Virus record (IMG/VR): IMGVR_UViG_3300012359_000001
Coordinates: 38,417-102,416 of that record
DNA length: 64,000 nt
Origin: a virus
Taxonomy: Duplodnaviria; Heunggongvirae; Uroviricota; Caudoviricetes
Reading direction: 5' to 3' (one strand)
Shown here: one piece after another, positions 17,585-49,374 of the stretch
Numbering within the stretch: position 1 is the stretch's first letter
How the letters are laid out: every line of letters starts with the position of its first letter
Translations under genes and position numbers: made by a program
Notes under the pieces: model-generated
Told to the model about the DNA's origin: nothing
The model's input: the letters and a program-made list of their open reading frames with translations, nothing else
Databases searched by the model: none

Positions 17585-18895
17585 CTCCGTTCAGGAAGCC
17601 CTACGGCTTCAGCCAAGGGAGGAATGAACGGCTTCCGCAGAAGCATTATTGCGTATTGACGATATCCCTCTAAGTGTGCTATAATACTGACATGAAACAA
17701 ACCATGCTCTTGAAACTGGCACCATCGCCAGAACAACAGAACGCCCTGCTTGAAGTCATGCATGCCTTTAATGATGCGTGTAATATGATCGCGCAAGTGG
17801 CATACGATGAACAACTTGCCAACAAGTTCAAGTTGCAAAAGTTGGTCTATGCCACCGTACGCAAGGACTTCAAGTTGTCGTCTCAGTTGGCAATACGCGC
17901 AATCAGCAAAACGGTGGAGTCCTACAAGCATGATAAGAGCATCAAAGTTTCTTTCCGCCGTGAGGGTGCAATCACCTATGACGAGCGGGTAATGTCCTTC
18001 AAAGGGTTGAATGAAGTCTCCCTGCTCACTCTGCAAGGGCGTGTGTTGGTTCCGTTTCGTATCGGCGGCTATCAGGAGTCTCGACTTGACCAAATCAAGG
18101 GGCAGGCCGATCTTCTCTTGAAGGGAAATACCTTCTATCTTGCAGTCACCCTGGACGTGCCAACTCCTGAACCCTATCAACCGTCTGAGACGTTGGGTGT
18201 TGATCTCGGTATTATCAACCTTGCTACCGCGTCGGATGGTGAGACGTTTAGCGGACAGGCGATTGAGCATACCCGCATACGCATGCTCTCGTTGCGAACA
18301 CGTTTGCAGAAGGTTGGCACGAAGTCCGCAAAGCGCCACCTCAAGAAACTTTCCGGTCATGAGAAACGGTTTCATCGTAACACGAATCATGTGATCTCCA
18401 AACATCTGGTACATAAAGCGAAAGTCAATGGACAAGAACTCGCGATTGAAGACTTAAGGCACATTCGTAAGAATGCAACGGTTCGGAAGTCTCAGCGCAA
18501 TCGACACGCCTCCTGGTCCTTCTGGCAACTGCGCTTCTTCCTCTCCTACAAGGCGGCGCTTGCGGGTGTTCCCTTGCACGTGGTAGACCCGCGTAACACG
18601 TCTCGAACGTGCCATGTGTGCGGACACTGCGAGAAAGCGAACCGCAAGAGTCAAGCCCTGTTCCTCTGTAAACAGTGCGGCATGTCGATGAACGCTGACA
18701 TCAACGCCGCAATAAACATATCTAGGGCTGAAGTCATGCAGCCTATGGCATCGGGACGCGCCCAGGTGCAAGCCGTTGGGTTTTAACTCAGGCGGTCATG
18801 ACTCTTGCGCTCCCTCTCCATACCGTTCAGGAAATTTACCCTTTGCCGTCTCTCTCTGGGGATAATCTGAAATATTCCCTATCAGTGGAGCAGAG
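17585..18895 (+). mobile_element. IS200/IS605-family element carrying only tnpB (IS1341-like). Boundaries approximate.
   Basis: Subterminal hairpins at 17600-17650 (GAAGCC..GGCTTC; GCTTCcgcaGAAGC). tnpB at 17692-18786. The motif CCGTTCAGGAA is repeated near both ends (about 17590 and 18832). Confidence 0.55.
17692..18786 (+). CDS. tnpB: TnpB (IS605 OrfB) RuvC-like RNA-guided nuclease family
   Basis: RuvC-I LGVDLGI, RuvC-II AIEDL, zinc finger CHVCGHC...CKQCG, and RuvC-III NADINAAINI. TATAAT sits 12 nt upstream of the ATG. Confidence 0.85.
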   Translation: MKQTMLLKLAPSPEQQNALLEVMHAFNDACNMIAQVAYDEQLANKFKLQKLVYATVRKDFKLSSQLAIRAISKTVESYKHDKSIKVSFRREGAITYDERVMSFKGLNEVSLLTLQGRVLVPFRIGGYQESRLDQIKGQADLLLKGNTFYLAVTLDVPTPEPYQPSETLGVDLGIINLATASDGETFSGQAIEHTRIRMLSLRTRLQKVGTKSAKRHLKKLSGHEKRFHRNTNHVISKHLVHKAKVNGQELAIEDLRHIRKNATVRKSQRNRHASWSFWQLRFFLSYKAALAGVPLHVVDPRNTSRTCHVCGHCEKANRKSQALFLCKQCGMSMNADINAAINISRAEVMQPMASGRAQVQAVGF

Positions 18896-21396: not shown

Positions 21397-21768
21397 TTAT
21401 TCCTTTGTACTGTCAGGAAAAAATGAGAGGTCTAATGCACATTCCCCATGTCCGATTGAGATGGTATAGGCGATTCTCCCATACCTTCTGTGCGTAGGTT
21501 CACCGATTTGTCTGATTGCATACCCGTCAGTTATTTCTCTGATAACATCCTCTGCTGGTGAGAGGGTTTCAGACCAGGGGATAGCGATGAGATCAAAGTC
21601 TTTTGCAAGGCTCCCATGAACAGCAAGTGCGTACCCATGCCTTTGAAATATCTTTGCCAGTTCAGGGTACAGCGCGGCGGCATACACGGGCGCATAGTTC
21701 GGCTTAATCTGCTCAGCCTCTTTCATCTCATCATTCGTCTCCATAGCCATGTGACGACGCCCAGGCAA
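21397..21768 (-). CDS. Hypothetical protein
   Basis: 123 aa. Overlaps the terL start by 38 nt. Confidence 0.35.
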   Translation of the reverse strand: MPGRRHMAMETNDEMKEAEQIKPNYAPVYAAALYPELAKIFQRHGYALAVHGSLAKDFDLIAIPWSETLSPAEDVIREITDGYAIRQIGEPTHRRYGRIAYTISIGHGECALDLSFFPDSTKE

Positions 21769-23110
21769 ACGGGTCTATCCGTTCAATCTCTGCAATCGTT
21801 GGTATCAGTACGGTTGTTGAGGTGACTTCTTCACCTCTCAATGGGACATTAGGACAAAACTTGTACGCGCATAAGTAGCGTTCACAATCTTTTGCATGAT
21901 CAAACTTCTTCACTGGTGCTTCATTCACTTTTTTACCATTAGAGGTATCCCAGATGTAATTCTCAAATTCAGCTTCAGAGCAAATAGGCAAACTTTGTTT
22001 CTGTAGCACCGGATCGACTTCTACTAGACTATCCCGTAAGAAGTACATGCCTGCTCGTCCGTTGGCATTCGGGCGTAATCTTGCTTGCATTTCTTGTATA
22101 CCCACTGACACCGCTTTGTTTGCAGCCAGGGTGCTATATCCAGTATAGCGTTCAAGCGTAGCGCGGTCTTCAGCATTATGATCGCAAATAATTGCAGATG
22201 GAGGTGGTTCACCCTGTGTTATCTGCATGATCAGTTTTGCGTGGTCTTCTACTAGTGTACCGGTCTTATAAATCTCATGGTAGCGGTACAGTTCGTCGTC
22301 GGGTGACTCGGCCCAGGCTTGCCATACAAACGGGTTGCGAAAGCCAAAGTCTACCACCCAATAACGCGGCCAATCGGCAGGGATATCAAAACGGTTGACA
22401 ATGTGCAGAGCAGGGTTCCATTCCTCCTCATACACCATACCCTCAGAGCTGGCCCAGATACCTTTACGCAACCGTAAGTACAGCACCCCTGATAACGCGT
22501 CTAACGTGGCAAGGTCTTCAGCAGTGCAGGCAGGGTTATCTTCATGCTTGCTATCAAGGAGCAACGTCTTACCCGCGTCACAGCGTTGTTTGAGCCAATG
22601 GTTAGCAGGACCAGGGTTACAGTCTCCAAGCAATTGCTGGTAGGGCATGACGTGATTACGTAGTCGTGATGTGAGGCTTTCCCAATCCACTTGATCCAGT
22701 TCTATCGCCTCTTGCGGATAGATAAAATCCCACTCTGATGACATGATCTTTTGTGGATCATCTAACCCGCCCACGGCTATGATACTCCCGTTGGGATACT
22801 CATATTGCTGATCAGTCACATTGAAGCGTATCAGGCTGCCGAGCCAGCCTTGCGGTAATACCTTCGTCTCATACGTCACCATAGCGGTTTGTGTGAGACT
22901 TTTGCGCGTTTTACGTACCATCAAGCCGCGCATACCCTTATACTTGTCAGCACAGTAATGCAGCTTTTCTATGGCACACCTAGATTTTCCAGTATTTGCC
23001 GCTCCGCACAAAAGCAACTCCCTACGAGCTGAGCGCCATGCTTTAAGAGCACCGCCGAAGGGTTGATACGGGCGCTTCTCTTTGACGTAGGAAGAGGCAA
23101 GAGTGATCAC
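21731..23110 (-). CDS. terL: Terminase large subunit
   Basis: Walker A-like LLCGAANTGKS near the N-terminus. 459 aa with a C-terminal nuclease-like region. The small subunit gene lies immediately upstream. Confidence 0.85.
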   Translation of the reverse strand: MITLASSYVKEKRPYQPFGGALKAWRSARRELLLCGAANTGKSRCAIEKLHYCADKYKGMRGLMVRKTRKSLTQTAMVTYETKVLPQGWLGSLIRFNVTDQQYEYPNGSIIAVGGLDDPQKIMSSEWDFIYPQEAIELDQVDWESLTSRLRNHVMPYQQLLGDCNPGPANHWLKQRCDAGKTLLLDSKHEDNPACTAEDLATLDALSGVLYLRLRKGIWASSEGMVYEEEWNPALHIVNRFDIPADWPRYWVVDFGFRNPFVWQAWAESPDDELYRYHEIYKTGTLVEDHAKLIMQITQGEPPPSAIICDHNAEDRATLERYTGYSTLAANKAVSVGIQEMQARLRPNANGRAGMYFLRDSLVEVDPVLQKQSLPICSEAEFENYIWDTSNGKKVNEAPVKKFDHAKDCERYLCAYKFCPNVPLRGEEVTSTTVLIPTIAEIERIDPFAWASSHGYGDE

Positions 23111-26915: not shown

Positions 26916-28193
26916 CTACTTGATGGGTGGAGCGTACTCAAAAGTAGCAGTTCCCAGGCGGCGGTACTGTGCTTGCCGCCCTCGCAAAACCGGATCGGCA
27001 GTTTTTGAGCTAGAGAGTGATGCCACATTCGTGTAAGAACCATGATGACTCTTCTGCATATTCAGAGCATCGCGCTTCTTGTCTAAATGGTCGTCTAGGC
27101 AGACTAGACGACCAGAGTTACTGTGATACAACATTTTCTGGTTCTTCTTCCACCTCGACGACTCTGACGCAGGCGATGGACCCGATGCATCCACGCCACA
27201 TTGCTTCCAGCGAGGGCTACGTGAGTAGTATGCAATCATAGCAGGATGGGCAACCGTATTATGGTAGCGATAGCCACGCTCATACAAATACTGGCCGAGC
27301 CAATCATCAAAACGTCCACCTAAACCTAAACCTTGATAATCAGGACGAACGACTAAGCGGTGCCCTTGCTTGATATTTCTGGTTTTCGGATGAGGAAGGT
27401 GCAAATAGGAAGAGAACGCTACGCACTCGCCTCCAATGAAACCAGCAAAGCATTGGGCCGCAGTATGGAGTACTCCACTTAGATAGTGATACTTGCTAAA
27501 CAGTCTCCATGCGGTTTTATCACACTGATAGATGCGGAACTCCAATTCTGGATGTCGTTGAAGTAACCTCCAATTGAAGGTATTAGTATGCGGCTGGTAC
27601 ACCCAATCAGGTTGTAACCAATCAAGCACATCATAATGGCACGTTACCGCGACCAATTGTTTTCCCGATTTGCGCACACTTTTCTGGATGCTGTGCGAAG
27701 CAACCTGCGCTACCTGCCGATCGACGACGCTGGTAAACTCATCAAGGACAATGAGATTCTCTGGTTCTAGTAACGCACGAGCCGCAGTGACACGGAACTG
27801 TTCACCCATGCTGAGTACAGCGTAGGGACGCATCCAGTTAGGAGGAGAACCAAAGCCGACACCGCACAACGATCCGGTGATATCCTTGATCGAAAGTCCT
27901 TTAGGCATTGCATCAACCACACTTTTATCAACGGGCCAGTCATCATAACCGATACGAACACAATCACCATAGAGAGCACGCGCAACCGTTGTTTTGCCAC
28001 TACCAGAGGGTCCAACAATAAGCCCGATGGACCAATCCTTTTGGTTGAGCGGCAAGTCAATATCCCAAGACTCAATAGATCGTTCTGAAATCGGGATATC
28101 GAATAAACTCTCTAATTGTTGTATACGTGCCGTTCGTTGCACGGCACATTCTTTCACGATATGCGCTTGCATTACAGTACCAGTGCCCGACAT
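26916..28193 (-). CDS. ABC-type ATPase nucleotide-binding domain fused to a GNAT-like acyltransferase domain
   Basis: Walker A GPSGSGKTT, signature-like LSMGEQ, Walker B LIVLDEFTSVVD, H-loop VTCHYD. C-terminal HRLVVRPDYQGLGLGGRF resembles GNAT motif A. Confidence 0.55.
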   Translation of the reverse strand: MSGTGTVMQAHIVKECAVQRTARIQQLESLFDIPISERSIESWDIDLPLNQKDWSIGLIVGPSGSGKTTVARALYGDCVRIGYDDWPVDKSVVDAMPKGLSIKDITGSLCGVGFGSPPNWMRPYAVLSMGEQFRVTAARALLEPENLIVLDEFTSVVDRQVAQVASHSIQKSVRKSGKQLVAVTCHYDVLDWLQPDWVYQPHTNTFNWRLLQRHPELEFRIYQCDKTAWRLFSKYHYLSGVLHTAAQCFAGFIGGECVAFSSYLHLPHPKTRNIKQGHRLVVRPDYQGLGLGGRFDDWLGQYLYERGYRYHNTVAHPAMIAYYSRSPRWKQCGVDASGPSPASESSRWKKNQKMLYHSNSGRLVCLDDHLDKKRDALNMQKSHHGSYTNVASLSSSKTADPVLRGRQAQYRRLGTATFEYAPPIK

Positions 28194-28783
28194 GTAATCC
28201 CCTCTCCCTGAAAGCGATCTAAGAGCACCAATTGCTCTTGCTCATTCTGGCAATCAATGATAATACCCCATCGCTCGGCAACGTCTGTTTGTTCAGCATT
28301 CCCCTCCTCTGGTAACTTGTCAGCATTTCTCCCTATCACCTCATCACCCAAACCCTCCAACATTTGCCGCAATGTCTCATCATCGCTACCAAGTGTCACC
28401 AGATCGTACCCTGCGTTTTGTTGTTCGGTAAGCAATTCTGCTAAAAGCGCATCATCGTCTACAGCATCCGCACTCAGGAGGTTATCGGCTACAATATAGG
28501 CATTGCATTCTAAATCAGAAAATGTTGGAGGCAGGATCGTTGCGTGAAGTTGGCTCATTTTGAGTTGTTGCGCCGCTTCGACCACACCATGACCTGCAAG
28601 GATCGTGTATGACCCATTCCCCTCATCCCTGCACACAATATCGCGCATCTGCCCGAAGCGTTCAAGACTCATCTTGATTTTATGTACTTGTTCGGGTGGA
28701 TGCGAACGGAAGTTCCGCTCAGATGGGTAGAGGGCAGCAACGGACACCTGATAATGCTCTTTGACAATCTCTTGCTCGATCAT
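28172..28783 (-). CDS. ParB-like nuclease domain protein
   Basis: LYPSERNFRSHPPEQVHKIKMSLERFGQMRDIVCR...YTILAGHGVVEAAQQL is a ParB/Srx fold pattern. Confidence 0.55.
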   Translation of the reverse strand: MIEQEIVKEHYQVSVAALYPSERNFRSHPPEQVHKIKMSLERFGQMRDIVCRDEGNGSYTILAGHGVVEAAQQLKMSQLHATILPPTFSDLECNAYIVADNLLSADAVDDDALLAELLTEQQNAGYDLVTLGSDDETLRQMLEGLGDEVIGRNADKLPEEGNAEQTDVAERWGIIIDCQNEQEQLVLLDRFQGEGITCRALVL

Positions 28784-29967: not shown

Positions 29968-30144
29968 CAAGGACCAATTGTGAATAACATGACGTAAAGC
30001 AATTCCCTTATTCAGCATACCAAACACCACAAAAGCGACCTGGAAAGATTGTTCTCCCAGGTCGTGATATCATTGGCTATTTTGCTGCAACTATTATCGT
30101 TCTACGGGTACGTTTACGAGGTCGTGTGTTTTACCGCCAACACT

Positions 30145-30615
30145 TCATGGGCAAGCTGTAGGGAAATACCTGCTTTTTTTTGCAAGTCGCTCAGGCGTAA
30201 TCTCTGGGTAAAGTTTCATGATGACAGAGACTCTACTTCCTAATTCACCTTTTATTAATGGTGAGCTATTTTTAGCCTGCCCTGTTTTTGATTTGCTTTC
30301 AAAAATGGACTGAAAATCTTTGTAAGTGAAAGACTTTGCAACATCCAGATTGAATAGACGCACCCCCAAGGAGAGGTAGTAGCGTATCCAATATTGCTCT
30401 CTTCCTTTAGCTTTCTCTATTGTTTCCACTTGCTCAAGAGTACGCATGATAAGCATGAAGCTTTCACTCTTTAGTTCCTGTATCCACTCATTCTTGTCGA
30501 TATTATTCCCGCTACACTGCACATGCTGAGAGAAGCGTTTATACACATCATCAGTAATGCCAACATAGCGTACAACATCGTTGCGAGGATCGATCAGGAC
30601 GTAAACAGCAATCAT
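30145..30615 (-). CDS. GIY-YIG homing endonuclease
   Basis: VYVLIDPRNDVVRYVGITDDVYKRFSQH is the GIY-YIG motif. Confidence 0.75.
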   Translation of the reverse strand: MIAVYVLIDPRNDVVRYVGITDDVYKRFSQHVQCSGNNIDKNEWIQELKSESFMLIMRTLEQVETIEKAKGREQYWIRYYLSLGVRLFNLDVAKSFTYKDFQSIFESKSKTGQAKNSSPLIKGELGSRVSVIMKLYPEITPERLAKKSRYFPTACP

Positions 30616-30627
30616 AGCATTGTCTCC

Positions 30628-30924
30628 CTACTCAAAACCCATATCGTCTAACAGGCTACTTGCAGCATCTCTTGCAGCATCAGTCACAACAACCCCTGAA
30701 ACTTTTGCCTCATGCTTTTTCTTCAGTTTACGATCAACTTTCTTCTTTGAGGCAGGCTTTCTTTCCTCGTCTGCCTCATCAGTGTAGGCAAGAATGGAAG
30801 CGGATTTAATGAGTACCCGCAACGGAATGGCTGACTTCTCAGCATGTTCTACCATCCGTTGCGCTGCCTGATTATCCTTTGGCAGTGCAATCTCAACATA
30901 CCAGTACTTCTCATGGTCTTTCAT
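30628..30924 (-). CDS. Putative ParR-like centromere-binding adaptor
   Basis: 98-aa basic/acidic protein immediately downstream of the parM-like gene, the canonical parMR order. Confidence 0.35.
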   Translation of the reverse strand: MKDHEKYWYVEIALPKDNQAAQRMVEHAEKSAIPLRVLIKSASILAYTDEADEERKPASKKKVDRKLKKKHEAKVSGVVVTDAARDAASSLLDDMGFE

Positions 30925-30927
30925 GTT

Positions 30928-31998
30928 TTACGCCCTCCGCAATGCGCGGCGCTGTCCGATCTGGTCTGCAAGAACGGCATACCCGCGAGCATTCGCTTTC
31001 TCAGGATCGGCTATCTGCACAGCGTTCTTGATGATTTTTTGTAGCGATGAATGGAAGTAGTACGCGCCGCCGCCGCAATGCAGCACTGATTTAAAGCTAG
31101 AAGCTACTTTGCCGCTCTGGTTACTCCACACACTAGAGATTTTTGCATTCTTCTCATCACCAGTTTCCTTGATAGCGGCTTTGACCCACTGCTGCAAATC
31201 TATCCCTGAAACTTGTATTCCATCAGCATACAGTTCTGGATAGGCACCAATATTGATACTTGCACGAAGGACAGCCTGCATTTCTGGCTCTGAGAGTTCA
31301 CGCCCGTATTTCGCCTCAAACTTTGTGCTCAACCGATAGAGGGCATTATTGACGCCGATCTCGAAACTATCGCACTGCTCAGTATGTGCCTTGTGTCCAT
31401 CAAAGCGAAGCATGTTGGTCGTGAGCGATCCGCTATCAACTATTCCTATCGTACTGGTCTTATCAAAACCGTGATAGATAGCAGCTCCCGCGCCCTCCAT
31501 GAACACCTTGACCGTCTCGACGCTGATCGCCATATCACGCCCATTGAACTGATAGCGATACACGCCGGTTAACTCTTCAACGATCTTGCTAGACTGTTCC
31601 TGGTAAGCACGCAAAGGAACGCCCATAACCAGATTGATGGAGAACTCCTGTATCCCAGGCCATATCTGCGCGGCAGCCAGCGAAGCAAAGCACATGATAG
31701 AAACCTGAGTACGTTTGTTGTGATAGCGGTGCTTGTCTTTAAAATCTGAAGTTGGGTTAAGTCCCTGCTCAGCAAGATCAGACAAAAAGTACACTGATCC
31801 GTCATATTCCACCATCAACTCGTTAGGATTGATGGTTTCACCGAGTCCACTGCCAGATTTCAGGGATTGATACTTCTTTAAGTTCCCTTCCGAGATGAGG
31901 CTTGACGCGTCGAACTCCAATAATCTGCCAGTATCCGTCATAACAGCGATATTTGTACGCTGATTGCCCCTGTCGAAGCCTAAATTCAATGTTTTCAT
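30928..31998 (-). CDS. parM: Actin-like ATPase, ParM/StbA family
   Basis: Phosphate-1 LGFDRGNQRTNIAV, phosphate-2 IVDSGSLTTN, adenosine HCGGGAY. Confidence 0.7.
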   Translation of the reverse strand: MKTLNLGFDRGNQRTNIAVMTDTGRLLEFDASSLISEGNLKKYQSLKSGSGLGETINPNELMVEYDGSVYFLSDLAEQGLNPTSDFKDKHRYHNKRTQVSIMCFASLAAAQIWPGIQEFSINLVMGVPLRAYQEQSSKIVEELTGVYRYQFNGRDMAISVETVKVFMEGAGAAIYHGFDKTSTIGIVDSGSLTTNMLRFDGHKAHTEQCDSFEIGVNNALYRLSTKFEAKYGRELSEPEMQAVLRASINIGAYPELYADGIQVSGIDLQQWVKAAIKETGDEKNAKISSVWSNQSGKVASSFKSVLHCGGGAYYFHSSLQKIIKNAVQIADPEKANARGYAVLADQIGQRRALRRA

Positions 31999-32019
31999 AG
32001 TGATTATGCCCTTTCTTTT

Positions 32020-32125
32020 GTACCGAATAATATTGAACTATACGGTATAGTTCGTTACTTTTTACCAGGATACCACAAAAATACCGAACTATCAAGTACT
32101 TTCCTGAACAGTTCGGAACTGATAA
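32020..32125. repeat. Centromere-like (parC-like) repeat array upstream of parM
   Basis: Palindrome GAACTATACgGTATAGTTC at 32035-32053. Related CCGAACTA and CAGTTCgGAACTG (32108-32120) repeats. Confidence 0.45.
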
Positions 32126-32395
32126 AATGGCCTAGTATAAGACAACACCTTTGTTTATGGAAAAATAAAATGCTGCATAGTTTGCAGCACATTACCTTCT
32201 ACCCAGTCTCTTTATCCCCTCAACATCTGATGAACCCGACCTACAACAAAACCCACAATACACACCAGCGATACAAGCGTACATACCGCCTGTACTGGCG
32301 CTACCACTGGCTTGATGTCAGGAACAAGCTAGATCGACACAATGAGCAGGGCGGCAATAACTCCTGTCATTTGCGCTAGCCTGAGCACTGGATTG

Positions 32396-32634: not shown

Positions 32635-33204
32635 TTACGCTCTTCTCTTGAGTCCACATTGCTCTAGAACATAGGCGGCGTGGCGACGATAGCGGCTATT
32701 GGTGATACCCATTTTCGCCAGGGCATCATTCACATTGCCAACTTTCCGGTACCAATATTGCAGGTCATCATGTAAATTTTCTGGTAAAAACTTGTCATCT
32801 CCTCTAGGGATATACCCATCACGAGAAGAGTCGGGTCTATTTTTCACTTCCAGTGCTGCAACGGCTTGAATGGCTATTTGACGAGAAGCCTGCACTTGCA
32901 ACTTTTTAATCTCTTTGAGTGCTAATCTATGGGTAGCATTTGTAAGAGGTTCACTTAACGTCTCAAAATGTTTAATCCAATAAGCCTCTCGCTCAAGGGA
33001 AAATTGATAGTTTCCAACTTGTTCCAGTGTCTCCATAATGACCATGCGATTGAGCGCACGCAGTTCAAAAATCCAGGCATTCTTTACAAAACTGCTGCCC
33101 TCTCCGTTAATATGCTGAGTAAATCGCTGGTAGACATCAGTTGTTTGACCGACATAGTGAACGGTGTAGTCTCGCGGATCTACCAGCGCGTAAATGGTAT
33201 ACAT
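32635..33204 (-). CDS. GIY-YIG homing endonuclease (second copy)
   Basis: IYALVDPRDYTVHYVGQTTDVYQRFTQH. The C-terminal module ...SRYRRHAAYVLEQCGLKRRA is shared with the upstream ATPase. Confidence 0.75.
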   Translation of the reverse strand: MYTIYALVDPRDYTVHYVGQTTDVYQRFTQHINGEGSSFVKNAWIFELRALNRMVIMETLEQVGNYQFSLEREAYWIKHFETLSEPLTNATHRLALKEIKKLQVQASRQIAIQAVAALEVKNRPDSSRDGYIPRGDDKFLPENLHDDLQYWYRKVGNVNDALAKMGITNSRYRRHAAYVLEQCGLKRRA

Positions 33205-33205: not shown

Positions 33206-35044
33206 TTATGCGTCCTTCTTCTTTAATCCCAACTCTGCAATCACGACTCTTGCATGCTGTCGATAACGGCTATCGGCTTGACAAAACTTCAGGCTTTTAT
33301 CGATGTTGCCAGTCATTTCATACCCTTTTGCGAAGAGTGCAATCTGTGTTTGGTTGAGTTGTGGCTGTGCGTCTGAGTGCGTCGTATGCGCTGGCTTCTC
33401 ATCTGGACGCACAGGACGTTGTACCGACGCACTGACTATTTCAGCTAAAATGAGACGATAATCAGCCTCAGAGATGCTGGTCAAGGCTAGAATGTCACTA
33501 TCAAGAAAACCAGCTTCACGCATTTTACGTATCGCTTCTACCTTGCCCATTGCACTGACAGAAGGCTCTAATCGCTGTACCGGTTGCGCAGAACGTTTTG
33601 TCAAGCAAGGGTTGCGTAACCGCTCAATCCCTGGTGTCTCGCTATAATCCTTTGACTCCCGCTTATCAAACTGAACCACCATTGGCTGTAAGGTGAAACC
33701 GAACACAACCGCTCTCCCAGGTGAGAGCATATTGATCTCCTCACGTGTAGCAACCTTTGCGTCAATTTCCTTCTCGCAGGCATCCAGGTCGTTTCGTTCA
33801 ACGTGCCGCGCAAAGATACGTATCTGGCAACTCTTGATCGCCCACTTGGCAATATAGGTCAAACTCTGTGTTGCAAAACCTACGGTATAGCCTGCTGATC
33901 GTCCATTGCTCACCAGCGTAAAGTACGAGTTGTTCAGTTCGTTGAGAAGTGGTTTATTCTCTCTGGCTTCAGGTGGAAGCAAGTCGATCTGTTGCGGCAG
34001 GTAGAGTTGCGCTTCATCTAGCAAGAGCCAGCAAGGGAGTAGCGTGCTGCCAGGAGGAAGCCCGTTCGCCATATCTAACTTGCGTTGCCTGATTGCATAG
34101 CGCATAAGCGACTTCCCAACTGCCGCTACAATTTCAGCCTTTGGCAACCACTTATCATCAGGGCCACCGTAGGAGGGAAGATTGACAATGGCAACACAAC
34201 GCTCCTCCATGACCATCCAGACAAACTCATCGACATTTTTGAGAGTCAGTTCAAAGAATTTGGGTACTCCTGCCATTTCAGCAGAGCCAGCATGGATGCC
34301 ATCAATAAAAGGCAAATCCAGAATAGGCGGGTATTCGCCCTTATGGTCAAGCACAATGATGGGAGCGCCACATTTGCCGCCTTGCTCAATAATGCGCCCC
34401 ATGAGTTGTGACTTGCCTGATCCCTGGACAGCACAGGCGACAAACCCTTTGCCGCTAATCTGATTGAAGTGAGGGTCAAACCTCTGTCCAGCTTTTACCA
34501 CTTTCCCCAGGACAATTGTTTCGTCGTGAGGGTAGGAAGGGAATACTGGCTCGTACACATCCTCCTTATCGTCCTCAAGTGCCTGCACAACAACCGGTCG
34601 GTCATCCTTCGGTTTTGCTACACTCTCAACAACTCTCTCATCAAGCGCGTATTCTAGTGGGGGTGTCGTCATCCCAACCAGTCGCATGAGTTTTGCTTTG
34701 ACTGATTGATCTTTGAACAACTCTTCTTCATCTTCAGGGGAAAGTGCCTCAACGACCTTTTCAGCAGTGATCTGTACTTGCTCTATATCCCCGCCAGGGG
34801 TAAGAAATGCCTGCTTGACCATTGAACCGGCATGAACGAGTTCACCAGAAAACAACCCCGCAATGACGGTACCTGCTATCCCGAAAAACGCGACGGTGCC
34901 ATTATGCGCAACCGCGTCAACAAACATAGAACTGGCAAATGCGCTGGTAGTAAGTATCACCCGCCCCTTAGAAACGTTACGCAAGTAAGAAGGGAGCATT
35001 GACTGCCCCCCACGCTTTGGTAGAATTTTCTCATTGTCTGTCAT
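33206..35044 (-). CDS. HerA/FtsK/VirB4-superfamily (DUF87-like) ATPase with an N-terminal hydrophobic region
   Basis: Walker A AVQGSGKSQLMG followed by IIVLDHKGEY (HerA-like). Walker B WLLLDEAQ. C-terminus ...DSRYRQHARVVIAELGLKKKDA. Confidence 0.55.
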   Translation of the reverse strand: MTDNEKILPKRGGQSMLPSYLRNVSKGRVILTTSAFASSMFVDAVAHNGTVAFFGIAGTVIAGLFSGELVHAGSMVKQAFLTPGGDIEQVQITAEKVVEALSPEDEEELFKDQSVKAKLMRLVGMTTPPLEYALDERVVESVAKPKDDRPVVVQALEDDKEDVYEPVFPSYPHDETIVLGKVVKAGQRFDPHFNQISGKGFVACAVQGSGKSQLMGRIIEQGGKCGAPIIVLDHKGEYPPILDLPFIDGIHAGSAEMAGVPKFFELTLKNVDEFVWMVMEERCVAIVNLPSYGGPDDKWLPKAEIVAAVGKSLMRYAIRQRKLDMANGLPPGSTLLPCWLLLDEAQLYLPQQIDLLPPEARENKPLLNELNNSYFTLVSNGRSAGYTVGFATQSLTYIAKWAIKSCQIRIFARHVERNDLDACEKEIDAKVATREEINMLSPGRAVVFGFTLQPMVVQFDKRESKDYSETPGIERLRNPCLTKRSAQPVQRLEPSVSAMGKVEAIRKMREAGFLDSDILALTSISEADYRLILAEIVSASVQRPVRPDEKPAHTTHSDAQPQLNQTQIALFAKGYEMTGNIDKSLKFCQADSRYRQHARVVIAELGLKKKDA

Positions 35045-35059: not shown

Positions 35060-35593
35060 TTATGCCTTTTTCCAGGCGATACTCAACAAATGCATTCCGA
35101 TAGTTCCGAAGAACCCGACAATAAAACTAGTGACGATAGCGAATCCCCACCGGCCTGCCTCACCACTTCCGAAGCTTCCATACTGGTGATCAGTCCAGGC
35201 ATTGAAGAAGGAGATCACTACGACACAGCCAATAAACACCTTTGCCATAATCGGACCTGATTTGCTTGCGGCGTCATGGAGCACTTCATATCCAATGATG
35301 AGTCCCAGGATAACCAATTCAATCCCCCAGGCAAAAACGGATGATCGGGCTTCCGTTGAACTCATGTTGCCGGTAATCAGACCTGGAAGCTGAAGCATGA
35401 TCAGCCAGTTCGGGTGATAGACATCAATTTGACCTGAGTTGGTGATATAGGCTTCATTGGTCTGGATTTGCGTCATGATGCCAACAACCCACATCACTAA
35501 AAATCCTGCCGCCACGGTCCCAACAAAAAGAGCAGGATGTCCTTTTTTTGCTGTACTGGTTCGTGCTGGTGTCTGCTGTACTGGTTCTGCCAT
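35060..35593 (-). CDS. Integral membrane protein (about 4 TM)
   Basis: 177 aa with several long hydrophobic segments. Immediately upstream of the ATPase. Confidence 0.45.
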   Translation of the reverse strand: MAEPVQQTPARTSTAKKGHPALFVGTVAAGFLVMWVVGIMTQIQTNEAYITNSGQIDVYHPNWLIMLQLPGLITGNMSSTEARSSVFAWGIELVILGLIIGYEVLHDAASKSGPIMAKVFIGCVVVISFFNAWTDHQYGSFGSGEAGRWGFAIVTSFIVGFFGTIGMHLLSIAWKKA

Positions 35594-36382: not shown

Positions 36383-37153
36383 TTACTTCCAGTAGTCTAT
36401 TTTTTCAGACATCCTGTACTCAAAACGAGTTGCATCTGCAATAGTTCGATGCAAGGCAACCACTGAATTATCAACAGAATAGTTGATACGACGCACTTCA
36501 AAGACAGGCTGAAAACGAGCCAGTTTTAATGTCTCGCACTCAGCAAATGTTGGTGGACGGGACTGGATGGTAAGATCGGTATGGTCAACTGATACACCGT
36601 ACTTCTGTTTGATAGCAAGCATCGTATCGAAGCCAGGGTCTTGACGCATCTGCTCTACAAAAACACTGGCAAGCGAAACCGGATACCAGATATGACCAAT
36701 CCTCAACGGTTGCTCATCTGTTCCCTGTAACCGTGATCGATGCACAACGTGAACACCTTCAGGGATAGCAATGTCTCCGTCTCTTTTCATAAAAAGAATA
36801 GCCACATCAGGAGGCATCGATGCAATCACAGGATCAACCAGGTTTTCTTCCACCGTCTTCAACCCTAATTTTTGTAAATGGGTTATAAAATTTGGCGTCA
36901 GACCAGGGAGAATGATCCGCAATTGTGCAACCTTGTAACGGTTACCAGCAACAGGAACAACAAGTCCTTCAGATCGTAGGATGAGCAACGCATTTGTAAC
37001 AGTCACGCGTATAGTTTTCCACTCTTTCGCAATAGAGGCGATAGAGGGAAGTATCCCTTCATTTCCGTAGTCTCCATTTTTAATCCGACTACGAAAATCA
37101 TCAGCTATCTGCTCAACTAGCGTCCCCCCTTCAGTATCACTCACTTCTTTCAA
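36383..37153 (-). CDS. GntR/HutC-family transcriptional regulator
   Basis: N-terminal GntR HTH (SIASIAKEWKTIRVTVTNALLILRSEGLV) plus a UTRA-like C-terminal domain. Confidence 0.7.
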   Translation of the reverse strand: MKEVSDTEGGTLVEQIADDFRSRIKNGDYGNEGILPSIASIAKEWKTIRVTVTNALLILRSEGLVVPVAGNRYKVAQLRIILPGLTPNFITHLQKLGLKTVEENLVDPVIASMPPDVAILFMKRDGDIAIPEGVHVVHRSRLQGTDEQPLRIGHIWYPVSLASVFVEQMRQDPGFDTMLAIKQKYGVSVDHTDLTIQSRPPTFAECETLKLARFQPVFEVRRINYSVDNSVVALHRTIADATRFEYRMSEKIDYWK

Positions 37154-42404: not shown

Positions 42405-43004
42405 ATGCAACCGAAGTATATTGAACTGTTTTACAATGATCTCGTGAGTGTTGCGCTACGAGAGATAGTTAGTGGGTATTACTGGCAGGGGCATCCTGTT
42501 GAGGTGGCATTGCAAGTATTAGAGCAACAAGCAAGAGAGCGACATCTCGTCTTTCGTACCACTGGCACTACTTCATACTTTCGCCTTATTCCTATTGAAC
42601 AGACAATGCTCCCATCAAAGAGGAGTATACTCATTATTGGTCGTGAGAAGGTCATGAGTGCCTTGCTCTTTTTGATGCTCATCCGCGGCGGGTATACTGT
42701 CTCAACAACCTCTGACGTAGCTGAGGTTGCGTTATTGAGCCATACGTACAGACCTGATCTGATTATTTATGATCTGGATACAATTTCACTAGAAAGTATT
42801 GAGTTGTGTATTGCTGATATTCCGCAACTCGCCATGAGTAGTACGCGTATTGCAGGACTCAAGAAGCCATTCACGCAACAAAAGTTATTGCATGAAGTAG
42901 AACAAATATTCAAGGAGAACGGACATGGAAGGGACAGAAAAGATATTCAATGCATTGATGCAAACCGTCCGTCGAGAGGAACAAGACGGGCACCCATTAG
43001 ATAG
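42405..43004 (+). CDS. Protein with a receiver (REC)-like domain lacking the acidic pocket (pseudo-receiver)
   Basis: SILIIGREK..(GR replaces the DD pair)..PDLIIYDLDT...KKPF fits a CheY-like fold. GGGAGGAG RBS before the ATG at 42405. Confidence 0.45.
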   Translation: MQPKYIELFYNDLVSVALREIVSGYYWQGHPVEVALQVLEQQARERHLVFRTTGTTSYFRLIPIEQTMLPSKRSILIIGREKVMSALLFLMLIRGGYTVSTTSDVAEVALLSHTYRPDLIIYDLDTISLESIELCIADIPQLAMSSTRIAGLKKPFTQQKLLHEVEQIFKENGHGRDRKDIQCIDANRPSRGTRRAPIR

Positions 43005-43193: not shown

Positions 43194-43835
43194 CTATACT
43201 GAGTAAGAGAGTTGCACGAAAATACCTGTCAAAAGATTAACACGTCCTCTACCTCCTTGTGTCCAGAGTGTACCAATTCCAACACGGAAGAGATCACCCT
43301 GTCCTCTTGCCTGATAGAAGGATTGCATCTCACATATGAGTGGTAGTAACTCCCCTGTATGCCTGATATAGCCCTTGACTTCCCACCCTTGAATTGTAGG
43401 TACCCATACATAGGGCTTGCTGTGATACTCATCCCACAACCGGTATGCCATACCGGTTGTCCATTGTTGCCGTTGTCGAACAATGCTGGCTTTTCCATCT
43501 GTAATCGGCTTCTCACAACACAAGTCCATCATAGCCGCCCACTCAGGACGGATTGCATCAAGCCACTGCACATATTGCTCTACACTATATTTGTACTCGC
43601 CTCCCCACTTCTTTGCGGCAACGAACCCTCCACAGTCAGCGGCAATATGGGTCATGCAGTCAGGTAAGCGAGGGACCGGTATACGTCCAATGACGTGATC
43701 GGTTGGCAAGCCACGTTTCTCTTGATTGCGTAAGGCACTGCCAGCCCAGGACGATGCTGGCAACAGAGCGCAAGGGATGAGACTGTACTTGCCTATCTCC
43801 CCACAAGAGACGGTTGGATAAAATGTGATGCTCAT
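43194..43835 (-). CDS. Hypothetical protein with weak tRNA-guanine-transglycosylase/DpdA-like motifs
   Basis: HIAADCGGFVAAKKW versus the TGT motif LTDSGGFQ. GQGDLFRVGIGT versus GxDMFDCVxPTR. Low-confidence resemblance only. Confidence 0.3.
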   Translation of the reverse strand: MSITFYPTVSCGEIGKYSLIPCALLPASSWAGSALRNQEKRGLPTDHVIGRIPVPRLPDCMTHIAADCGGFVAAKKWGGEYKYSVEQYVQWLDAIRPEWAAMMDLCCEKPITDGKASIVRQRQQWTTGMAYRLWDEYHSKPYVWVPTIQGWEVKGYIRHTGELLPLICEMQSFYQARGQGDLFRVGIGTLWTQGGRGRVNLLTGIFVQLSYSV

Positions 43836-44152: not shown

Positions 44153-44541
44153 GCGACCCCCTTCGTGCCATACATCCCGCCGTACTCCTGCTCCAACTTT
44201 GCCGCAACCATCTTGGCATGCTCAGGGGTTGCACGCTCGCAATAGGCAAGCCAGTTATGATAGCCTTGCCTGATGAAGAACCCGCCTGCATCCTCCTCTT
44301 CCATACGCTTTGTTTCCCCATTCCACCGTTTTTGTGTGAATATCATTTCCAACTCAGGGCATCCATAATAGCGTGCCTGTTCTAGCAACCGTGCAGCATG
44401 TGCATGTTCCTTGCAAAAGCCGCTCTCACCTGCTGTATTGGTACAGGCTGTGATGCGCCGTGGAAAGACGGTAGAAGGCTGCGTGATCTCGAACTGGCAG
44501 CACGACTCTTGCTTGATTGCTACTCCAAAGAGGTATTTCAT
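44149..44541 (-). CDS. Hypothetical Cys-rich protein
   Basis: 130-aa ORF. Confidence 0.3.
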   Translation of the reverse strand: MKYLFGVAIKQESCCQFEITQPSTVFPRRITACTNTAGESGFCKEHAHAARLLEQARYYGCPELEMIFTQKRWNGETKRMEEEDAGGFFIRQGYHNWLAYCERATPEHAKMVAAKLEQEYGGMYGTKGVA

Positions 44542-45290
44542 GCCTCTTGCTCACTTTCTGGCATATCCCACGGTGGGGTATCATCTTCATTGGTTACAGG
44601 TGCCTGCTTGCGCAACTCTTCGCTGACATGCTGTAACTGCATTCGTTTAAGTCGAGAGGCAGCCTGCACTACAGACCTTGCTTGCGTCACTTCGTCACGA
44701 GAGAGGATATACATCGCCTCCTCACGGCATCTTAAAACGGCAGGGTGTAACTCAGGAGGCACATCAAGAGACTGATTAGGAACAGGTTTCTGAGCAGTAA
44801 AGGCAAGGAGTAATTGGTACAGCATTCGTGTATCTTCTCTCGTAAAATCATCGGGCGCAATAATGCCGCATACGTGAGAAGTAAGGCTTGTTGCCTCAAG
44901 GAGAAGCCCAACAAGTAGATCCTCCCAGGTCTGCACGGTCACTTTCTTGTTTTTGCGTACCACCGTTGGATCAGGGTATAAAGCGTGCCCTGTCTTATCC
45001 ATGAGATCAGATTGCTCCACTTTGGAATGGAAGTGTTCATGACACGATTCGCAAAGCGTGGTTAAGTCATTCAAGTCTTCGCGCCCACGTCGTTGGTATG
45101 TGCGATGATGCACCTCTAACTTTTCATTGCTATAACAAAGTCGGCAACGATGATCATCACGGATAAGCGTTTGTTTCCGTTTCTCTGCCCATTCAGGCGT
45201 TCGTAAGTACTCGGCATACGGCATACGTGCTAACTGCTCTTTGCGCTGCTCATTAACAGTCAAACGAGAGAACCATTCAGGATCATTCAT
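44538..45290 (-). CDS. HNH endonuclease domain protein
   Basis: DDHRCRLCYSNEKLEVHHRTYQRRGREDLNDLTTLCESCHEHFH is an HNH motif. Start probably at MNDPEWF (45290). Confidence 0.7.
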   Translation of the reverse strand: MNDPEWFSRLTVNEQRKEQLARMPYAEYLRTPEWAEKRKQTLIRDDHRCRLCYSNEKLEVHHRTYQRRGREDLNDLTTLCESCHEHFHSKVEQSDLMDKTGHALYPDPTVVRKNKKVTVQTWEDLLVGLLLEATSLTSHVCGIIAPDDFTREDTRMLYQLLLAFTAQKPVPNQSLDVPPELHPAVLRCREEAMYILSRDEVTQARSVVQAASRLKRMQLQHVSEELRKQAPVTNEDDTPPWDMPESEQEA

Positions 45291-45637
45291 TATGCAACCT
45301 CCTGTATTTCTAATGCCGCCATTGCTAACGCCGTGATACATTCATCACTTCCCATCAATGTAATCTGCACTGCGTACCAGGGACCAGCCTCAATCGAGTA
45401 GTACTTGACTTCATCAAGAGTGATATCGGTCAAAGCAGGGAAGCCACGTGAAGAGAGAATGTCAAGGAAATCTCCACGTATCCGATGTTCCGTACACCAG
45501 CACATCCCGGCGCAATCTCGATAGACCACCTCTGGTACATCCATCTCAAATTGCTGCAAGGTGTCTTTATCACACCGCATACACTCGCCTGGACGCTCAA
45601 TCTCTTGTAGTTTTCTCCGTATTTCAGTGATGTTCAT
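45290..45637 (-). CDS. Hypothetical protein
   Basis: 115-aa ORF. Confidence 0.3.
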   Translation of the reverse strand: MNITEIRRKLQEIERPGECMRCDKDTLQQFEMDVPEVVYRDCAGMCWCTEHRIRGDFLDILSSRGFPALTDITLDEVKYYSIEAGPWYAVQITLMGSDECITALAMAALEIQEVA

Positions 45638-46973: not shown

Positions 46974-48505
46974 TGTGCAGCCACTTTCTTCTCGCAACTC
47001 TCGCGCATCTCGCGCATCTTACGCTGTAAATCGGTTTCAGGTCGGCGTGTTGTTTTGACGGTCGTATTGCCTACTTGGATTTCAACCTGCTGCACCTCTT
47101 TTGGTTTGAGGTCAGCAAGCAGATCCCAGGAGTTAGCAATTGCCTCAAGTTTTACCCGTTTGCCCTGTCGCTTCAATTCAGCGGCTATGAGCAATGCATC
47201 CTTGAGCGTTCCCTTGAGCCTGAAAAGGATAATTTTGACACTCGATACTTCCCACTTGCTGAGTGAGCATGGCCCGTAGATGCTCTGATCCCAATTGTCA
47301 ATAAATTCGAGCACTGGAAGGGTAATACCTTTGACTTCTGGCATTTGATCTTTGATCAACTCAGTGAGCAGGCTAATCCGTTGGCGACGTGCCAACTCTT
47401 CAGGAGAAAGTACAGGGTGTTGCTGCACTGCTGGCTTGACTTGTAGGGGTAACGCTGGCTGGTCATACATCAGCACTTCAACCGCTACCGTACCATTGCG
47501 GGGGAGATCGCTAGGGATCGGTAAGACTTGCTCAGAAAGTGGCTTCATCGTCGCTTTGCCTTGCTTGCTCGGTTGTGCTGATACGGCTTGCTGGCTATAC
47601 GACGATGAAGCACTGGAAGAGACAGGAACGAGAGATGCTTGTGTCGATGCTACATCTTCTGAGGTTGAATGTCCCGCCTCTACTGCCATTATACCGGGAG
47701 TGCAAGTTATGGGAGGTTGCGCGACCGGATATACCGCTTCACGATGCGAACCTGCCTGAAGGGGATTGGCTTGCGCATCCTTTCCAACTTCAACTCCCTG
47801 ATCGCTTTGTGGAGCATTTCCTGTCTCAGCAGAATAACTATCGTGAGGATACCCATTGCTAGCATCCAGGTTATCACCAGATTGATCAGTAGTTGCACCA
47901 TTGCCGTGTGTCTCCTCAAGACTTGAAGATAACTCTGCCTGATTGATTATAGCGTCCTGAGAAAAAAGTGAGGGTGTTTTTGGTTGCGTGTCACTACTGT
48001 TGGTTACTACCACACCCTCTCTCGTAGTGTTTCTTGTTACGTGTGTTTCTTGTATGTTACCTGAGGTAACTACCCCCCTTGCTGAAAAGTAACTACCCCC
48101 CTGGTTACTCTGAGTAACCACCTCGTTACCTGAAGTAACTACCTCAATGGCTTTTTTAAACCGCAATTTGTAAATGGTTGTGTCCTTACTTCCGGTAATC
48201 GCCTCTCGTTTTTCTGAGACAATGCACCCCTTTTTCTCAAGTCCTTTGAGAGAGGCTAAGATGAGGCGATTATGTCCGATACCGCAACCAACGTTGAGCA
48301 CCTTGCCCTCTTTTGTCTTGATGCCCTCTTTGAACTGGCTGAGTGAAATAGCATCAGCATTCTTGCCAAATCCGAAGGTCCGACGAATGATATACATGAG
48401 TACTTTCAGTTCGTTGCCCGTAAGTATTTTGAGGAGGAAGTCAAAAACGTAATCGGGTACGGCTGTCGTTCCTGGTGTGTCAAATCCTTCAAACTGTTCG
48501 CTCAT
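46970..48505 (-). CDS. Replication initiator / replisome organizer with internal iterons
   Basis: N-terminus FDFLLKILTGNELKVLMYIIRRTFGF... is a winged-helix rep-organizer type. The Ser/Thr/Gln-rich middle is encoded by repeats. Confidence 0.5.
   Translation of the reverse strand: MSEQFEGFDTPGTTAVPDYVFDFLLKILTGNELKVLMYIIRRTFGFGKNADAISLSQFKEGIKTKEGKVLNVGCGIGHNRLILASLKGLEKKGCIVSEKREAITGSKDTTIYKLRFKKAIEVVTSGNEVVTQSNQGGSYFSARGVVTSGNIQETHVTRNTTREGVVVTNSSDTQPKTPSLFSQDAIINQAELSSSLEETHGNGATTDQSGDNLDASNGYPHDSYSAETGNAPQSDQGVEVGKDAQANPLQAGSHREAVYPVAQPPITCTPGIMAVEAGHSTSEDVASTQASLVPVSSSASSSYSQQAVSAQPSKQGKATMKPLSEQVLPIPSDLPRNGTVAVEVLMYDQPALPLQVKPAVQQHPVLSPEELARRQRISLLTELIKDQMPEVKGITLPVLEFIDNWDQSIYGPCSLSKWEVSSVKIILFRLKGTLKDALLIAAELKRQGKRVKLEAIANSWDLLADLKPKEVQQVEIQVGNTTVKTTRRPETDLQRKMREMRESCEKKVAAQ
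47995..48145. repeat. Origin-like iterons (RGTAACYACC direct repeats plus inverted GGTTAC copies) inside the initiator gene
   Basis: GGTAACTACC 48065-48074. AGTAACTACC 48089-48098 and 48134-48143. AGTAACCACC 48113-48122. GGTTACT copies at 48003 and 48103. Confidence 0.5.
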
Positions 48506-49374
48506 GCTACACGCCCACTTTCTACTTTTTTCTTTGCCGTTGGAACGATCAAACTTTGCAATGTAGAGGTATCCCACAAACCATCTTGTGAAGTGGGAGC
48601 GAAGCAACCGCAACCGCCCCAATCGTTTTTGTCATAACTGGTATCGCCAGCTTCTAATCTCAATCGGAAATCATGCAGTGAGAGAGGATAGGCAACACCG
48701 TTCACACGCTCTCTGAGGATCGTGACGTTTTTTTCCAGGTACGTCCGTATCTCTTCCTCTTTTGTCTCCCATACTGCGTATCGATCTGGTAGCGTGTAGT
48801 AGAGGTGCGCCCAATGGGCCATGCCAGCCTTGACGCAACCCCCGCCACAATTATTGTGGCTAAACCCCAGTGTGTAGAGCCTGGGAACTGCAATGCCGAT
48901 CTTTTCCAGGTACTCTGCAATATCACACTTTTGTACGTAGGGCTTCTCGCAAAGCGGAAACCAGACCGGTTGCGGTGCCAGAGAAGCCGTGAGACGGTCA
49001 ACACGGTGCATCTCTGTCCAGTCCATACCAAAGACACGAGTGTAGGTTACAGGCGCGTAGCGTTCGTTGAGCACCTTGTCTATCAATTTTCGTTTGAGGA
49101 TTTTACTGCAAGGTGCCGCGCTTTGCATGGTGATACAGCGCTCGTCATGCATCACTTGCCAGGGTGTACGTCCGTCTGCAACGCGTTCTATGGTGATACC
49201 GAAGTAGCGTTCCTGGTCATCAAGGAACCGGTACAGGTCTTCATCTTCAATGAGGGTGTCAGCGAATATGGCGCGTGTGCGTTCTTTGCCGTATCGCTCT
49301 AAGGTTCGTCTCAAGGCTTCAAATGAGGTAAGCCCACCTGAGACATTGACAATGTATATCTGTGTATCAGACAT
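48502..49374 (-). CDS. PAPS reductase-like / PP-loop ATP pyrophosphatase family protein
   Basis: IYIVNVSGGLTSFEALRRTL is PP-loop like. C-terminal Cys cluster DWGGCGCF. Confidence 0.6.
   Translation of the reverse strand: MSDTQIYIVNVSGGLTSFEALRRTLERYGKERTRAIFADTLIEDEDLYRFLDDQERYFGITIERVADGRTPWQVMHDERCITMQSAAPCSKILKRKLIDKVLNERYAPVTYTRVFGMDWTEMHRVDRLTASLAPQPVWFPLCEKPYVQKCDIAEYLEKIGIAVPRLYTLGFSHNNCGGGCVKAGMAHWAHLYYTLPDRYAVWETKEEEIRTYLEKNVTILRERVNGVAYPLSLHDFRLRLEAGDTSYDKNDWGGCGCFAPTSQDGLWDTSTLQSLIVPTAKKKVESGRVA

Follow-up and report, generated by a model that had tools for sequence, protein, structure and literature searches.

What is the gene for an actin-like ATPase, preceded by repeats and followed by a small reading frame, doing in a tailed phage? 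The question arises at positions 30628-32125 of a 64,000-nt stretch of IMG/VR record IMGVR_UViG_3300012359_000001 (hereafter, the window), where a 170-nt leader is followed by two co-oriented minus-strand open reading frames (ORFs). An initial annotation, made from the sequence letters, had proposed a ParM/ParR-like type II partition locus with a parC-like repeat array. The fold of the motor, the gene order, the ribbon-helix-helix (RHH) adaptor and the promoter-bracketing repeats all agree with that proposal. Judged from its sequence, the locus is a type II (ParMRC-like) DNA-positioning and partition cassette of a ~100-kb tailed phage.

The whole cassette lies on the minus strand, and we describe its leader in gene-strand reading. 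The features, in the order of transcription, are the following.

32170..32190, minus strand: terminator-like hairpin with a T-run (8-pair stem, tail TTTATTTTTC), closing the upstream transcription unit and forming the 5′ boundary of the cassette
32080..32119, minus strand: repeat block A, putative centromere/operator, four 10-bp units
32067..32095, minus strand: sigma-70-type promoter from a promoter scan, TTGATA-17 nt-TATCCT with a TG extended -10 (-35 at 32090-32095, -10 at 32067-32072)
32019..32058, minus strand: repeat block B, putative centromere/operator, four 10-bp units
32009..32018, minus strand: purine-rich ribosome-binding region AAAGAAAGGG, read from the sequence, 10 nt 5′ of the start codon of the actin-like gene
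30928..31998, minus strand: ParM-like actin-like protein (ALP), 356 aa, assigned as motor/filament ATPase by families, fold and motifs
30628..30924, minus strand: ParR-like adaptor, 98 aa, with an RHH domain at about residues 6-48, a disordered basic linker at 51-78 and an acidic C-terminal helix at 82-94 ending AASSLLDDMGFE
30145..30615, minus strand: GIY-YIG homing-endonuclease-like ORF, 156 aa, starting 12 nt past the adaptor stop
30036..30064, minus strand: terminator-like hairpin with an 11-pair stem, 3′ end of the transcription unit

Terminator-like hairpins thus delimit the unit on both sides. Hairpins resembling the one at 32170-32190 also stand ahead of the repeat arrays in two related loci (L002 and L024). 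The GIY-YIG ORF inside the unit is probably a co-transcribed selfish passenger and no functional part of the cassette; in L005 and L013-L015, too, the adaptor gene is directly followed by a GIY-YIG ORF.

Motor and adaptor

The 356-aa protein scored above the Pfam gathering thresholds for ALP_N (45.6 against 26.3 bits), MreB-like_C and Alp7A_like_C, and it matched PHROG 691, "partition protein", with an E-value of 4.9e-35. When it was aligned with 22 homologues of 30-82% identity, the key residues of four motifs proved invariant or nearly so: D9 and G11 in phosphate-1 (GFDRGNQRTN), E168-A172 in the catalytic motif (MEGAGA), D188, G190 and T193 in phosphate-2 (VDSGSLTTN), and G309-G311 in the adenosine motif (CGGGAYY). 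The earlier description of an actin-fold ATPase with intact phosphate-1, phosphate-2 and adenosine motifs therefore stands. An AlphaFold2 model built on the same alignment reached a pLDDT of 91.7 and a pTM of 0.87. In a Foldseek comparison with the PDB, its first 26 matches were all actin homologues of the ParM/ALP family, among them BtParM, pCBH ParM, archaeal Ta0583, pSK41 ParM, CorM, Dh-cParM1, Alp7A, Alp12, R1 ParM and Cbc-ParM, with Hsp70 and MreB ranking after them. We are confident that the modelled fold is ParM-like.

The protein is remote from the ParM proteins already named as such. Its nearest PDB protein by sequence was pCBH ParM (E 4.5e-6), and its nearest plasmid genes were Bacillus genes annotated "plasmid segregation protein ParM", at ~23% identity. 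The NCBIfam equivalog of that name (PRK13917) gave 33.6 bits (E 2.3e-8) against a cutoff of 417 bits, so the ALP is not a member. Because the equivalog was missed by a wide margin and the nearest matches were remote, the ALP appears, by sequence comparison, to form a divergent subfamily of its own. A profile search of 1.84 billion representative proteins gave 154 clusters at E <= 1e-30, rising to 1327 at E <= 1e-10.

The adaptor ORF starts 3 nt past the ALP stop codon and encodes 19 K/R and 18 D/E among its 98 residues, which bears out the small charged protein and the parM-parR gene order noticed in the initial annotation. A word-indexed search with the single sequence found two homologues, and a profile search extended these to a family of 33. 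In the alignment of this family, two amphipathic segments come after a conserved N-terminus, (K/R)(Y/F)xYVEVALP; then there is a variable linker rich in K, R and P, and finally a conserved acidic tail, SSAxAFLDDEGF. In the AlphaFold2 model the N-terminus is extended and two helices follow; residues 55-77 are disordered, and 82-94 form a C-terminal helix. The N-terminal part is an RHH domain of DNA-binding type, as a type II system would have it. Its strand starts at about residue 6 (MKDHEKYWYVEIALP), and it has no N-terminal amphipathic helix before it.

As aligned and modelled, this design, an RHH domain joined by a flexible linker to a putative motor-docking C-terminal helix, is the layout of ParR. 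ParR's C-terminal peptide has been seen bound to ParM in the R1 system (PDB 4a62), and the equivalent C-terminal helix of CorR binds CorM (bioRxiv 10.1101/2025.06.27.661541). A small ORF of 86-98 aa lies directly 3′ of the ALP gene in every close-relative locus fetched (L001-L014; 10/10 loci compared), and in 7 of 10 distant IMG/VR loci this position is taken by an RHH-like ORF whose tail is acidic-aromatic (DAWPD, YGD). The order of motor, then adaptor, holds in all close relatives and most distant ones.

Repeats, promoter and their conservation

In the gene strand the leader reads ...ATCA, block A, TTTGTGGTATCCTGGTAAAAA, block B, AAAGAAAGGGCATAATCACT and ATG. The units of block A are GTTCC GAACT / GTTCA GGAAA / GTACT TGATA / GTTCG GTATT, and those of block B are GTAAC GAACT / ATACC GTATA / GTTCA ATATT / ATTCG GTACA. 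Each 40-bp block consists of eight GWWC-like tetramers at a 5-bp phase, equivalent to four 10-bp imperfect palindromes GTTCnGAACn. Block B begins 61 bp after the start of block A, and a 21-bp core with the -10 element lies between the blocks; the -35 hexamer falls inside unit 3 of block A, so that the two blocks bracket the promoter. The GAACTAT/AGTTC palindromes that had been pointed out upstream of the genes are present, as a perfect palindrome GAACTATAC-G-GTATAGTTC at 32035-32053, within block B, and as the overlapping GAACAGTTC/GTTCGGAAC at 32106-32119. The array is better described as the two 40-bp blocks of phased GWWC. A candidate 20-bp duplex for adaptor binding is GTTCCGAACTGTTCAGGAAA.

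Could the repeats be chance or merely promoter-associated, and the small ORF unrelated, so that only the ALP gene is real? Exact-word counts were weak, as this explanation predicts. GAACTAT occurred 11 times in the window against 7.2 expected, which is no enrichment (3 of the 11 copies lie within 58 bp of the leader), GWWCNGWWC occurred 19 times against 14.2, and CGAACTRT was likewise at best marginally enriched. Exact 6-7-mers were not significantly enriched in the upstream regions of most loci. In addition, the small protein lacked a family match: no sequence match to the adaptor was found in Pfam, PHROGs, NCBIfam, PADLOC or PDB, which weighs against reading the locus as a cassette. The repeats are degenerate and visible only by mismatch-tolerant and phased tests. 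In the 138-nt leader, 10-mer pairs matching at 7/10 and at 8/10 exceeded all 300 dinucleotide shuffles. In a phased-GWWC scan of both strands of the 64 kb, the two blocks were jointly the best 40-mers, each scoring 26/32 (mean 12.2, sd 2.6); the 5-bp-phase test was devised after inspecting the sequence and is post hoc. Mismatch-tolerant self-similarity beats shuffles in most related loci as well, and distant relatives have long, nearly identical pairs of repeats on either side of the promoter. The small ORF, for its part, keeps its position, fold and C-terminal motif across 33 sequences. A chance origin is largely refuted already by these results, and we consider it very unlikely.

The runner-up in the phased-tetramer scan (score 24, at 42740-42785) is built on GATC and lies within an ORF. 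We judged it unrelated.

The comparison across relatives is, among the sequence-based lines of evidence, the strongest for the cassette. About 20 related loci share the three-part layout, at ALP identities as low as 26%. A megablast search of 24-40 kb against 50,697 phage records gave no DNA-level match, and a tblastn search of phage records with the ALP gave Bacillus phage 0305phi8-36 as the sole match, at ~23% identity. Relatives in IMG/VR were found by an alignment-based scan after a single-protein scan had given none.

A promoter of the TTGACA/TATACT type lies ~60-100 nt 5′ of the ALP start in 10/10 close-relative loci compared; equivalent promoters are at the same place in L002, L004-L006, L008-L011 and L013 and also in distant relatives. 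Self-similarity of the leader beat shuffles (fraction <= 0.03) at both thresholds in 8 of 10 loci, at one threshold in L006 and at neither in L013, the most divergent. The repeat unit itself drifts. It is GTTCnGAAC in the window, L002 and L004, and GTACnGTAC/GGAC in L005, L010 and L011; the 61-62 bp spacing of the blocks is retained in L010 and L011. The IMG/VR relatives at 26-35% ALP identity have unrelated repeats, two copies of 31-36 nt that are 84-97% identical and 94-133 bp apart, flanking the promoter. The placement of the repeats is conserved among the loci and their sequence is not, which is what a protein-specific binding array predicts.

From the computed fold and motifs of both proteins, the repeat and promoter architecture, and the conservation of these, we infer DNA binding, autorepression, adaptor-filament contact, polymerisation and segregation in the following way. 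Dimers of the 98-aa RHH protein would bind both four-unit blocks cooperatively, one dimer per 10-bp unit and about one helical turn apart. Because the blocks bracket and overlap the sigma-70 promoter, we propose that the adaptor-DNA complex would both repress the cassette's own promoter (autoregulation) and act as the cargo handle. The acidic C-terminal helix of the adaptor, on its flexible basic linker, would capture the growing ends of ATP-dependent ALP filaments. Elongation of a filament between two adaptor-DNA complexes would then push copies of the phage genome apart.

Host, genome context and role in the phage

The following genes around the cassette are needed for what follows.

2132-4747: tape measure
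21731-23110: TerL
33206..35044, minus strand: HerA/FtsK-like P-loop ATPase, 612 aa, conserved 5′ neighbour of the ALP cassette

The host is probably a member of Ktedonobacteria, a mycelial, spore-forming, multicellular class of Chloroflexota. All relatives of the ALP among species-representative genomes were from this class: a metagenome-assembled genome (MAG) of Dictyobacter (58%), the chromosome of Ktedonosporobacter rubrisoli (32%) and two MAGs of Ktedonobacteraceae. The window is part of a tailed-phage genome of ~102 kb. Its structural and packaging genes include, besides the two listed, those for a major head protein, a protease, a portal and TerS, and its replication genes encode a DnaN-like clamp, a DnaC-like loader, a DnaB helicase, an O-like initiator and a Holliday-junction resolvase. 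The cassette lies within this replication/early region, between DnaN and DnaB/O-like. No DNA polymerase was recognised in the window, and this replication set depends on the host polymerase. The window holds a complete phage gene set together with plasmid-type replication and partition functions, a combination looked for in phage-plasmids.

In its most likely role, the cassette would keep the phage genome stably inherited as a low-copy plasmid prophage outside the chromosome of a Ktedonobacteria host. We favour this role, at about even chances, because no integrase was found in the 64 kb and because of the plasmid-type gene order, the dependence on host polymerase, the accessory genes, the co-binning with MAGs and the precedents. 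The lack of an integrase in the window, remarked on in the initial annotation, was confirmed by searching all ORFs of at least 250 aa against Pfam or PHROGs, none of which was an integrase or recombinase; none was found among the Pfam-annotated genes of L001-L014 either. Accessory genes typical of resident elements include a GmrSD_N/NsnA-like gene, two GntR regulators and TnpB. Close and distant relatives were binned in Ktedonobacteria MAGs. Systems that pair a ParM-like protein with an RHH protein have been described in Bacillus and C. difficile plasmid prophages (PMC8026635, PMC5786514).

Several observations speak against plasmid inheritance. The window covers 64 kb of the ~102-kb genome, and the remaining ~38 kb could hold an integrase; two exact-match scans of JGI metagenome contigs for an extension of the genome beyond the window gave no match, and the ORFs at the two ends of the window had no record in the form in which they were called. 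Neither a CI-like repressor or antirepressor nor a toxin-antitoxin system or a recombinase for multimer resolution was recognised in the window. Its homing-endonuclease-like ORFs, three of the GIY-YIG type and one HNH, are of a kind commoner in virulent phages. Distant family members sit amid ordinary chromosomal genes (in K. rubrisoli and a Ktedonobacteraceae MAG), and the ALP family is therefore not tied to plasmids. Finally, the AlpACS system of prophage CGP3, a cassette of the same kind, serves lytic replication in an integrated prophage (PMC4446434).

This last precedent suggests another job for the same machine. It might act during lytic or induced growth, taking phage DNA that is being replicated to a favourable place in the cell (membrane, pole or hyphal compartment), without being needed for plasmid inheritance. 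In CGP3, AlpA binds repeats in its own promoter region and ties DNA to AlpC filaments, and efficient replication requires it (PMC4446434). Several homing endonucleases in the window, and no lysogeny genes that could be recognised there, favour such a role, as do candidate DNA-modification genes (DpdA-like, PAPS reductase) and the position of the cassette inside the replication/early region, with an AEP primase-like gene adjoining in L010 and L025. However, the order of motor, then adaptor, is that of plasmid par loci, and the alpAC order is the opposite (Donovan et al.). An autorepressed promoter-centromere suits constitutive low expression, no integrase was found in the 64 kb, and TnpB, together with the defence-type and regulator genes, is suggestive of a resident element. 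We regard lytic positioning, the main rival, as possible rather than probable.

The plasmid-prophage role also has to be weighed against a function away from DNA. The ParMR-like pair might have been repurposed as a cytoskeletal or host-manipulating filament, as in CorMR, with the repeats a mere operator or irrelevant. CorM is among the best PDB matches of the ALP in sequence and fold, distant members of the family are in chromosomes of multicellular, mycelial Ktedonobacteria, and the NCBIfam profile of the filament-morphology protein FcmB matched the ALP weakly (7.7e-7, far under its cutoff). The adaptor argues otherwise, since CorR has an N-terminal amphipathic helix before its RHH domain and no parC; the adaptor of the window lacks such a helix and is accompanied by the repeat array. 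A two-block array kept around the promoter throughout the phage-borne family despite sequence change is the signature of a specific protein-DNA array, and the cassette is on a mobile genome that requires positioning. With no such helix in the adaptor and the array conserved, a CorMR-like role is unlikely.

Two chromosomal relatives have other surroundings. In K. rubrisoli (L026; NZ_CP035758.1, ~11.28 Mb; ALP homologue at 9878-11464), the homologue is amid genes for LuxR/MalT regulators, MFS, TetR and dehydrogenases; the ORF 3′ of it, of 125 aa, is RHH-like. The distant homologue L028 neighbours genes for an aromatic amino-acid lyase, HlyD, MFS and PadR. No phage genes were found near either, and these homologues may be chromosomal ParM/CorMR-like systems of a multicellular Chloroflexota lineage. 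We considered whether the K. rubrisoli homologue belongs to an integrated prophage and rejected this for lack of phage genes in its 21-kb context; it is uninformative on the lifestyle of the phage in the window.

A protein identical to the ALP is encoded on a second record, ENA contig DNA_vOTU_6973 (ERZ14695916; 102,432 bp). With an offset of 50,228, this contig would end at about position 52204 of the window, inside the ORF 52132-53004, and the window extends 11.8 kb beyond. The window therefore has to stem from a different record of the same phage, one that is permuted or longer. A second record with another break point is consistent with a circularly permuted or circular assembly and is no proof of it.

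Of the loose ends, the HerA/FtsK-like ATPase, a conserved upstream neighbour, interests us most. It matched Pfam DUF87 and, in PADLOC, mad8 (6e-10). A comparable ORF (484-612 aa, the window included) is directly 5′ of the ALP gene in most relatives (L002, L004, L006, L008, L016, L019/L020, L024 and L025), even at 28-34% ALP identity. The ORF at 35060-35593 (minus strand) precedes the gene, and close relatives have an ORF of ~170-200 aa there. It is conceivable, if improbable, that the cassette, this ATPase and the small ORF before it form one DNA-trafficking module for a mycelial, sporulating host. The actin-like filament would then spread phage-plasmid copies along hyphae, and the FtsK/HerA-type translocase would pump DNA across septa or into spores, like the FtsK-like TraB of Streptomyces plasmids. 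If true, a phage-borne type II partition system would be joined to a septal DNA pump.

Further genes were seen near the cassette in relatives. A divergent ORF for an AEP primase (AEP-TOTE) of ~1020-1060 aa lies 5′ of the HerA-like and ALP genes in L010 (1-1826, minus strand) and L025 (2029-5097, minus strand), which in these two loci places the cassette next to a replicase in a plasmid-like rep-par arrangement. The two GntR regulators of the window are at 36383-37153 (minus strand) and 56056-56772 (plus strand), and one of them carries a UTRA effector domain. In several relatives (L002, L009 and L010) a GntR/UTRA gene is a few kb 5′ of the ALP cassette and may be the main regulator or repressor of the phage.

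The GIY-YIG ORFs are at 30145-30615, 32635-33204 and 50633-51040, and the HNH ORF is at 44538-45341, all on the minus strand. The first two bracket the ALP cassette. The C-terminus of the second (residues 152-188) resembles that of the HerA-like ATPase, with 41% identity across 37 aa (E 5e-6). A TnpB-type ORF (OrfB_IS605 with a Cas12f1-like TNB domain) at 17674-18786 is on the plus strand inside the otherwise minus-strand structural/packaging region, and another, unrelated TnpB is close to the ALP locus in L002.

Candidate DNA-modification or anti-restriction ORFs are at 43194-43835, 48502-49374, 28172-28783 and 26916-28193 on the minus strand and at 57715-58800 on the plus strand. They include a queuine tRNA-ribosyltransferase (DpdA)-like ORF, a PAPS-reductase-like ORF, a ParB_N-like ORF overlapping an ABC-ATPase/GNAT gene (PHROG 11143, 5e-95), and the GmrSD_N/NsnA-like ORF, which may be a defence moron. 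We considered the ParB_N-like ORF (28172-28783) as a second partition system. It has no ParA partner, it overlaps the ABC-ATPase/GNAT gene, and its best matches were methyltransferase-associated ParB-like domains (PHROG 498/620, PADLOC MTase_II); a partition role was rejected.

Comparison with known systems

The concept is already established, with ParMRC on phage-plasmids and AlpACS on prophages. R1 ParMRC likewise has a centromere-promoter, then an actin-like motor, then a small adaptor, with its repeats split by the promoter core. In R1, parC consists of two sets of five 11-bp iterons with 39 bp holding the promoter between them, it binds about one ParR dimer per iteron, and it serves as operator and centromere (PMC2241845). 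In contrast, the array of the window is 2 x 4 x 10 bp over 101 bp rather than 2 x 5 x 11 bp over 159 bp, its units are palindromic (GWWC-n-GWWC) rather than direct iterons, and its -35 lies inside the upstream block. The ALP is ~11% identical to R1 ParM in the structural alignment, and the cassette is borne by a tailed phage where that of R1 is on a conjugative plasmid.

The plasmid prophages Bacillus IEBH and vB_BtS_B83 and the C. difficile phiCD5763-like phages are tailed phages too; they are temperate, replicate as plasmids and have a ParM-like gene that adjoins an RHH adaptor gene and a presumed centromere (PMC8026635, PMC6669507, PMC5786514). They have no detectable DNA similarity to the window, their hosts are Firmicutes rather than Chloroflexota, they carry Xer-type recombinases, of which none was found in the window, and their plasmid state has been demonstrated. 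AlpC/AlpA/alpS of prophage CGP3 in Corynebacterium glutamicum shares a phage-borne ALP, a co-transcribed adaptor and repeats in its own promoter (PMC4446434, PMC5539076). It differs in that the adaptor gene comes first, 5′ of the ALP gene, where the window has ALP, then adaptor; the prophage is integrated, the system acts in replication and transport after induction, and the alpS motif TTAAnnG is unrelated.

The best fold matches of the motor were BtParM of B. thuringiensis (2.7e-23) and pCBH ParM of C. botulinum (4.2e-21), at 15-18% identity. Filament architectures vary widely in this family, so that the form of the filament cannot be inferred from these matches. CorMR of Anabaena and Dh-cParM1 are ParM/ParR-derived pairs outside plasmids, and CorM and Dh-cParM1 are among the top fold matches. 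CorR, unlike the adaptor of the window, binds membrane and not DNA (bioRxiv 10.1101/2025.06.27.661541). In TP228 (type Ib), the RHH protein ParG reportedly binds parH, whose degenerate tetramers resemble the 5-bp-phased GWWC boxes, but the motor ParF is a ParA-type Walker ATPase and not actin-like (PMC3130281).

Set beside these systems, the host phylum is new here and the ALP subfamily distinct; the concept being established, a specialist would not be surprised. The cassette adds a well-resolved type II example to the essentially unstudied large phages of Ktedonobacteria/Chloroflexota, in which the 5-bp-phased tetramer grammar of a two-block putative centromere/operator can be read from the sequence. 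It also defines an ALP subfamily, the 154 clusters mentioned above, found on phages and host chromosomes. If the phage is a plasmid prophage, phage-plasmids with actin-type segregation would extend beyond Firmicutes, and the cassette would offer a compact stabilisation module for a phylum without genetic tools.

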